The notes under the pieces were generated by a model. It saw nothing but the letters and a program-made list of their open reading frames with translations. It searched no databases and was not told where the DNA came from. A program made the position numbers and the translations under genes. A DNA stretch of 10,949 nt from Armatimonadota bacterium (lineage in GTDB: Bacteria; Armatimonadota; Zipacnadia; Zipacnadales; UBA5352): NCBI GenBank assembly GCA_034722055.1, contig JAYENL010000095.1, positions 30,701 to 41,649 on the forward strand. Reading direction: 5' to 3'. This document shows, in pieces, positions 1 to 256 of the stretch. Numbering within the stretch: the first letter of the stretch is position 1; each line of letters begins with the position of its first letter.

Positions 1-86
1 GGGAACAGGATGGCTGCCAGGATCGCGATGATCGCGATCACGACCAGCAGTTCGATGAGGGTGAAGCCACGCCTGTCGGTAAACAT
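1..86 (-). CDS. Prepilin-type N-terminal cleavage/methylation domain protein (probably DUF1559-type pilin-like protein); only the 5' end is visible, truncated by the window edge
   Basis: Manual translation from the ATG at 86: MFTDRRG|FTLIELLVVIAIIAILAAILFP. This is a canonical class III signal peptide (G|F cleavage, Glu at +5, hydrophobic helix). SD AGGAGG(G) at 93-99. Not in the ORF track because the stop is outside the window. The DUF1559 label is inferred from the N-terminus only. Confidence 0.93.
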   Translation of the reverse strand, partial: MFTDRRGFTLIELLVVIAIIAILAAILF

Positions 87-89
87 AAT

Positions 90-256
90 CGTCCCTCCTG
101 CTTGCTGGCGCAGGGGGGGACGTGATACAATCGCTACAGGCGGCGTGGCGATTGCCACGTCCCCGGCCCGTAGCGCGTTGCCGCGCGCTGCGGGCCTTTG
201 TATTGCGCCGCTGTCTGACCTGGGGGCCTCTGAAACGGACAGGCGCCTCAGGACAG
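90..256 (-). promoter_or_regulatory. Structured 5' leader of the prepilin gene; candidate cis-regulatory RNA with anti-SD hairpin
   Basis: Stems read directly: 116-124/156-164 (9 bp perfect, plus inner 128-134/148-154); 165-177/184-196 (13 bp, 1 mismatch or wobble); outer 107-112/204-209; 211-215/252-256. Alternative helices: 90-101/110-122 covering the SD, and 144-149/154-159. Confidence 0.5.

Follow-up and report, generated by a model that had tools for sequence, protein, structure and literature searches.

Refolding of a leader by an antisense RNA is a textbook device of plasmid copy control. In the staphylococcal RepA_N plasmids, the counter-transcribed RNAI of pSK41, ~83 nt long with two stem-loops, binds the rep leader upstream of the ribosome-binding site (RBS); according to the passages of a review that describe it, a stem-loop that buries the RBS then forms, and transcription is not terminated (PMC5703833). 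The same passages give pT181 RNAI and pIP501 RNAIII a pre-emptor logic, in which half of a downstream hairpin is kept occupied by an upstream arm until the antisense RNA removes that arm, and the hairpin that they induce is a transcription terminator (PMC5703833). For iron, IsrR of Synechocystis is a cis-antisense RNA under an iron repressor that silences leaky isiA mRNA and sharpens induction; it lies in the coding region and acts by co-degradation, with no leader refolding in the account cited (PMC8635728). Other metal-transport genes carry structured leaders, NiCo/czcD and yybP-ykoY, with an RBS or terminator platform, which in the parts of the source cited sense the ion directly and mostly turn on efflux (PMC9294342).

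The element described here lies in a 10,949-nt stretch of an Armatimonadota genome (hereafter the window), where it forms the minus-strand leader of a prepilin-type gene and, on the plus strand, a predicted small RNA gene. As in pSK41, according to the same passages, an opposite-strand promoter within the leader heads a short two-stem-loop RNA with its own terminator, its target lies upstream of the RBS and not over it, and an RBS-burying helix is induced, here in silico, in 17/18 copies from the same class and 3/6 copies from other classes. Unlike pSK41 RNAI as described there, the element is chromosomal, its predicted RNA is about 65 nt long, the antisense promoter itself is the arm that pairs with the Shine–Dalgarno sequence (SD), and the genes served are DUF1559, outer-membrane, feoAB-linked and TonB-type genes, not rep. 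It shares the pre-emptor logic of pT181 and pIP501, but no conserved U run was found after the SD helix in 19 downstream sequences inspected by eye, and we therefore read the control as translational. In contrast to the metal riboswitches, it has an opposite-strand gene, no Rfam match and no conserved loop bases. It is no member of the plasmid ctRNA/RNAI group either: no rep gene lies downstream, no Rfam family matches at gathering score, and PLSDB gave no match over more than 24% of the query. On the antisense strand of one diverged copy the best Rfam hit was ctRNA_pGA1 (RF00236), with 24.7 bits (E 0.005) against a gathering score of 45; it was not hit in the window and is a likeness of shape only. 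A type I toxin–antitoxin pair was also considered and rejected, the targets being secreted or pilin-like proteins of 200–480+ aa and not small toxin ORFs.

Folds of the mRNA leader

The minus-strand features are as follows.

1..86, minus strand: 5′ end of a prepilin-type (N_methyl + DUF1559) gene, from the open reading frame and from Pfam on a neighbour with an identical start
90..101, minus strand: Shine–Dalgarno region, the anti-SD target in fold B, from folding
110..122, minus strand: anti-SD; 3′ foot of the long hairpin; on the plus strand, spacer of the antisense promoter
116..164, minus strand: long hairpin P2 (148–164 with 116–134), whose anti-anti-SD arm holds the anti-SD in fold A, predicted to be translation-permissive
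144..159, minus strand: local hairpin of fold B (hairpin B); complement of the first stem-loop of the predicted antisense RNA
204..209, minus strand: 5′ strand of outer stem P0 (partner 107–112), which covaries only in the window's own subtype

The gene starting at ATG 86 is truncated by a scaffold gap of 100 N that adjoins the window on its left (G000:C95:30601-30700), and its N_methyl and DUF1559 domains are those that Pfam finds in the neighbour with the identical start. The preliminary description had proposed that its leader is a bistable, riboswitch-like RNA. All eight segments that it named read as written and where it placed them, and its fold A, a three-way junction, is the minimum free energy (MFE) structure of 84–265 (−87.6 kcal/mol, z −4.5, 0/200 shuffles). 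The helices are all present, and folds A and B are both possible, at −66.2 and −65.1 kcal/mol for 84–209. The two are near in energy, but A is favoured, and bistability depends on the stretch folded, because the ensemble share of fold B runs from 20% down to 0. Forced fold B lies above A by 1.1 kcal/mol in 84–209 and 0.6 in 84–265, where its share is 18–20%, and by 3.3–3.5 kcal/mol in 84–164, 84–196 and 70–265; its share is about 1% in 70–265, 0.3% in 84–196 and 0.00 in 84–225. The statement that fold A leaves the SD free holds with the outer stem formed; otherwise a short hairpin, 110–114/97–101 (P about 0.45–0.7 in ensemble folding), covers part of it. Between 15 and 60 °C only this short hairpin melts in 84–225 (0.91 to 0.01) and the long anti-SD helix does not form; these folds lend no support to a thermosensor, one of the two triggers suggested earlier.

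Comparison across homologues bears out the anti-SD/anti-anti-SD logic. The copies are kin and all p values given here therefore overstate. The arms of the long hairpin fit their own partner better than a swapped one in 15 class copies (0/5000 permutations), with a cognate advantage at p 0.0004 in 8 diverged copies and p 0.011 in 6 close copies. In nine copies, nine cells of this hairpin are changed on both sides (0/500), and for pairs with such a change the figure is 48/500. RNAalifold on 11 close copies of the element found two-sided change in only 3/30 pairs. The long hairpin is more stable on the mRNA strand in 13/19 copies, and in the 6 copies from other classes it is weak, with no cognate advantage (p 0.72). 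The anti-SD and SD, which stand 30–150 nt apart, covary in the 8 diverged copies (p 0.0002) and in the 6 from other classes (p 0.007); within the window's subtype no cognate advantage was found (p 0.26), and the mRNA strand gives the more stable form of their helix in only 5/19 copies. The outer stem covaries in the window's subtype (30/5000) and neither in the 8 diverged copies (2033/5000) nor elsewhere (1505). The strength of SD pairing is ordinary (median of the best duplex −16.7 kcal/mol in 15 motif leaders versus −17.1 in 40 other prepilin leaders, same genome). What stands above chance is the fixed position of the anti-SD and its covariation across homologues, not duplex strength. A leader peptide (PEE(M/V)W-stop in some copies) was considered but discarded, since the window's subtype lacks the stop.

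A predicted small RNA gene on the opposite strand

Four features lie on the plus strand.

102..107, plus strand: −35-like hexamer TTGCTG (3/6 match to the consensus)
123..131, plus strand: extended −10 element TG-A-TACAAT of the predicted antisense promoter
138..204, plus strand: predicted antisense small RNA, about 65 nt, consisting of stem-loop 1 (139–164), a terminator hairpin and a U tail
165..204, plus strand: intrinsic-terminator-like hairpin (165–196, 14 pairs) with a U-rich tail (197–204)

Within the 3′ arm of the long hairpin, on the antisense strand and at one offset, 19/20 copies match the consensus of a sigma-70-type promoter, taken as TAnnnT plus either a −35 of at least 4/6 or an extended TG, 16–18 bp apart, the −10 position having been picked after the pattern was seen. 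At other offsets within 60 nt on either strand the same test is passed by at most 1/20 copies, and in the genome background by 41 of 132,077 positions. All 7/7 copies found later also carry the antisense promoter. Two features of the leader coincide with it: the conserved GUCAA 3′ of the long hairpin is complementary to a −35 box, and the TG-n of the extended −10 corresponds to the 2-nt bulge in that hairpin. Diverged copies have TTGACA, TTGACC or TTGACT at −35; in the window the −35 is weak (3/6), the spacer is 18 bp and the site is missing from the output of an automated promoter scan. The −10 is lost in one copy, G016b. Elsewhere in the phylum the 12-mer CGTG-N-TACAATC appears, from gene positions, to behave like a promoter, with a same-strand gene start at most 69 nt on at 14/28 unrelated sites, compared with 5/28 on the other strand and 122/1500 (8%) at random places; a stricter first version of this test, in which an SD was demanded, failed (5/30 versus 107/300).

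Positions 114–120 of the window are a run of seven G that belongs both to the antisense promoter spacer and to the anti-SD. The run is eight long in paralogue C95c and is interrupted by an A in most relatives. Slippage in it would shift the promoter spacer from 17 to 18–19 bp; none was seen within the locus at 114–120.

The start of the antisense RNA (138) is inferred from the spacing to the −10. A terminator scan called the hairpin at +165–196, which is followed on this strand by a U run; read on the mRNA, the terminator-like hairpin is hairpin P1 plus an A-rich linker, and this linker of the three-way junction is the complement of the antisense U tail. Across copies the predicted RNA is 60–68 nt long, with two hairpins and a U tail that is U-rich in 17/19 copies; copy C319b has lost most of the terminator. 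The two hairpins are more stable as antisense than as mRNA in 17/19 copies, and over the 19 copies G–U pairs number 63 on the antisense strand versus 10 on the mRNA strand. In P1 and hairpin B, A–C mismatches on the mRNA are G–U pairs on the opposite strand. In the window, hairpins 165–196 and 144–159 both fold better on the opposite strand, a point against a riboswitch aptamer as the trigger. The window RNA (139–203) folds with a z of −6.35. Among the 8 diverged copies 98% of cells are paired and 11/25 pairs are changed on both sides (0/500 shuffles); slid controls gave 44–57% of cells. The loops of the predicted RNA are not conserved between copies, and a CUCC-rich stretch within it is mostly paired.

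Distribution and metal-uptake gene context

The family comprises 21 copies in 15/79 genomes of the class, spread over four families and two orders, and 6 more copies in other classes of Armatimonadota (150-genome phylum sample). These counts are lower bounds because the models lose copies in whole-genome mode: model R1 found only 11 close copies, and R2 and R3 missed the window's subtype in that mode. In the phylum sample R3 gave 22 hits, of which 19 were examined and 6 kept, the rest being terminators, tRNAs or unclear. The window's genome has five full copies and one partial copy (three plus one on contig C95, two on C319), all before a DUF1559 gene, and 6 copies occur in 4 other genomes of three genera. 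Diverged copies were found in G074, G059, G078 and G045, by following neighbours and with further models, and also in G058, G076, G002, G064, G051 and G049. The two subtypes are ~50% pairwise identical. A model built from 8 diverged copies alone recovers window 101–205 (+) at 34.2 bits (E 1e-8) and gives no other strong hit in 92.7 kb. Orthologous copies are more alike in the motif than in the upstream DNA (0.83 versus 0.56, and 0.77 versus 0.48).

Searches outside the family returned little. At gathering score Rfam gave no match in the window, in 8 homologue loci or in 18 further loci (one tRNA aside), and in E-value mode only chance matches in the window. Scans of viral collections gave 0 and 1 chance hit, and of metagenomes 0 and 106 chance hits, of which not one lay near a prepilin motif and 0/100 tested matched the model; a genome-contig collection gave 11 loci, 6 true and 5 by chance. 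Twenty-three loci with other DUF1559 leaders are without the motif, and it is absent from the DtxR–feoAB operon of G006, which has the same outer-membrane gene, and from a gene with a DtxR box in G054. No description of the element was found in the literature, although supplements of large RNA-motif surveys could hold it, and it is absent from Rfam 15. The element is real and conserved and has apparently not been described before, and the earlier view of an undescribed cis-regulatory RNA before an N_methyl + DUF1559 gene is upheld by the family of copies and the lack of an Rfam match.

The genes around the copies point to metal uptake. In the class, 17/21 copies lie behind a DtxR-type box, immediately downstream of fur or of feoB, or within a DtxR operon. 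Four stand directly behind fur, and two of these are followed by an outer-membrane-like gene and feoB. A feoB-like gene precedes two more, and DUF4198, within a DtxR operon, precedes one; CbiX and FmdE genes are among the neighbours. A facing sigma-70 sense promoter lies 137–241 nt upstream in 9/20 copies, and in 9/20 the sense sigma-70 promoter is overlapped by the palindrome TTAG-N6-CTAA, which also precedes the G049 copy. We read this palindrome as an operator of the DtxR family because it stands before many DtxR/MntR-like genes across the order (Pfam confirmed the G006 protein). The remaining class copies are one that begins at a contig end and the three on C95, including that of the window, which have no metal context; neither a DtxR box nor a sense sigma-70 promoter was found near the C95 copies. 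Apart from the element, TTAG-N6-CTAA overlaps promoters of DtxR/MntR-like genes at G000:C324:8257 and in L198–L226, and the class likely has an autoregulated DtxR regulon.

In other classes all 6/6 copies follow a small CxxC...R(A/G)PP ORF, and the genes behind them are TonB-receptor-like or DUF1559 genes; a protein with a carboxypeptidase-regulatory domain follows in 4/6, and three have a weak TonB plug hit. A CxxC motif with a C-terminal R(A/G)PP is given as the hallmark of CruR in the text cited (PMC9426467). Pfam found DUF2946 in 0/6 of these upstream ORFs. Across the phylum, small His-rich CxxC...R(A/G)PP ORFs that resemble CruR head many DUF1559 and TonB-like genes (L251, L253, L254, L241, L250 and L312–L320) and, with no Pfam hit in six tested, may be an unrecognised branch of metal-sensing leader peptides.

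At L057:89-1033 (G005:C825), an unrelated gene for a secreted outer-membrane-like protein, which has no Pfam family and whose homologues sit in feoAB operons, is fused to the cassette and to the ten opening codons of a prepilin gene (MFTSRRGFTL); judging by this fusion, the leader is a mobile module. Another structured non-coding stretch, unlike this element, occurs in two genomes of another class (L316:1500-1634 and L324:1500-1631); it has a promoter-like start and a GC-rich terminator, matches R3 weakly and is not in Rfam.

Probable antisense control and its alternatives

Because the opposite strand holds a promoter, two hairpins and a terminator, the antisense RNA is a likely trigger, and the leader is probably a chromosomal cis-antisense translational switch thrown by its own ~65-nt antisense RNA and not by a small molecule. 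The place of the promoter, the hairpins and U tail, the complementarities, the conservation and the context are in the sequence itself, the folds are predicted, and transcription and function are what we infer. Among the RNA runs searched, none contains the stretch beyond a share of 0.05, and shares of 0.05–0.07 do not count as evidence. When the antisense target is kept unpaired in silico, the ribosome site costs over 2 kcal/mol more to open in 17/18 class copies (median about 8), and blocking P1 alone has this effect in 10/18 (median about 3); fold B is already the free MFE structure in 5/18, and in copies from other classes the in silico switch works in only 3/6. Cofolding of the window leader with its own antisense RNA gives exactly the anti-SD:SD helix of fold B. 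In stepwise folding hairpin B forms first and P2 replaces it only once base ~116 is made, so that the antisense RNA would have a window in which to bind. Given these blocking, cofolding and stepwise-folding results, fold A is likely the default, with the SD predicted to be open, and fold B the antisense-bound state. The antisense RNA would pair with the 5′ arm of the long hairpin, freeing the anti-SD to bury the ribosome site.

Made constitutively, as seems plausible, such an RNA could set a threshold that silences leaky transcripts, in most cases layered under the control of feoAB, TonB-receptor and DUF1559 genes by DtxR, Fur or CruR-like leader peptides, and would be overrun when induction is strong. 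This purpose is suggested by analogy with IsrR/isiA. The DUF1559 gene array of the window's contig, with three full copies on C95, would have taken over the cassette without an evident metal operator. A wider proposal, which we hold to be doubtful, is that a portable cassette of ~120 bp, in which one stretch serves as antisense promoter, anti-SD and hairpin arm, provides a second threshold, made of RNA only, phylum-wide under three metal sensors that are unrelated to one another (DtxR, Fur and CruR-like leader peptides), and that paralogous antisense RNAs cross-repress one another like incompatible plasmids, limiting which DUF1559 gene is translated. Cross-repression of array members is suggested because paralogous copies are near-complementary, the C95 copies pairing with each other at 86–94% of the cognate duplex energy.

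A real antisense RNA could also act mainly through interference between convergent transcripts or through mRNA decay triggered by the double strand, the folds being secondary. It would fit that the promoter and two-hairpin RNA are the part most conserved phylum-wide, that the long hairpin fades in other classes and that 9/20 copies have the facing sense promoter; such a mode of action, however, needs neither covariation of an anti-SD and SD 30–150 nt apart nor the class-wide covariation of the long hairpin, and we consider it unlikely. Much less probable is that the small RNA regulates metal metabolism in trans, its gene being only lodged in these leaders and silenced by transcription of the uptake operon through it. 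The RNA gene is self-contained, with promoter and terminator, and its CUCC-rich stretch could pair with SD sequences, but that stretch is mostly paired within the RNA, the loops vary between copies, which one expects of a cis-antisense RNA but not of a seed, and one genome holds five copies, each before a gene in the same orientation.

A ligand, the other trigger to which the preliminary description pointed, would make the junction a sensor of a metal ion or metal cofactor and the opposite-strand promoter incidental. Two folds near-equal in energy and mutually exclusive at the RBS, the strong tie to feoAB, fur, DtxR and TonB genes and an outer stem that covaries in the window's subtype (30/5000) are what one would look for in such a riboswitch. 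Yet no loop or junction base is invariant in 18 aligned copies, the 11 invariant columns all lying in stems, the anti-SD or the opposite-strand promoter; the outer stem is unsupported in the 8 diverged copies (2033/5000); the A–C mismatches of P1 and hairpin B turn into G–U pairs on the other strand; nothing in Rfam matches, NiCo and yybP-ykoY included; and an aptamer has no use for a conserved −35 at 17 bp. A riboswitch is thus very unlikely. Least probable of all is that duplication of the gene start in the C95 array merely took the leader with it and that the leader has ceased to regulate anything: the copies there are 88–98% alike and have their first codons in common, no DtxR box or sense sigma-70 promoter is near, and the G7–G8 run has lengthened the promoter spacer to 18–19, but all three have kept every helix, the extended −10 and the terminator while the gene bodies diverged, and the motif is kept better than upstream DNA between orthologues, as given above.

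If the leader is the antisense-driven switch proposed here, the mechanism would extend to nutrient regulons in a barely studied phylum; the cited passages of the sources consulted give antisense leader refolding for plasmids only, and this family is chromosomal and tied to metal uptake. It would also offer synthetic biology natural parts, diverse in sequence, of a kind already in use there and suggest a role in metal uptake for a subset of the DUF1559 pilin-like proteins. Searches for riboswitches should reckon with this case, since a hidden antisense gene can have as its target an anti-SD platform that covaries and precedes metal genes.

Upstream of the window copy, the minus strand at 211–256 and 262–342 holds a further hairpin and an upstream stretch that is ~80% like that of paralogue C95c; this is probably the sense promoter region. 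A sigma-70 scan found no sense promoter for the window copy, and an alternative-sigma promoter at ~270–300 was unsupported (1/50 leaders against a shuffled mean of 0.49).

The scaffold gap left of window position 1 separates two near-identical leader-plus-start repeats. One contig joins 1–36 to a further leader copy up to 222, with unknown sequence in between, and a 222-bp tandem duplication was dropped as the cause of the gap, the joint having unknown sequence between its sides. Contig depth for the gene left of the gap is 5.5 and 25, compared with 14.9 and 49.8 for the unique DNA of the window, a weak hint that the C95 array may hide another gene or differ among cells. Elsewhere in the genome an IS-like end (TGACTGCTGAA...) occurs ten times, on G000 contigs C28, C106, C154, C176, C203, C230, C250, C269 and C275 (and in G011, L056:7160-7245), always within about 320 bp of a contig end. 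Nine of the ten lie inside the conserved IAII codons of prepilin-type genes, which then read VIAII-stop, and the end looks like part of an element that targets the DUF1559 gene family.
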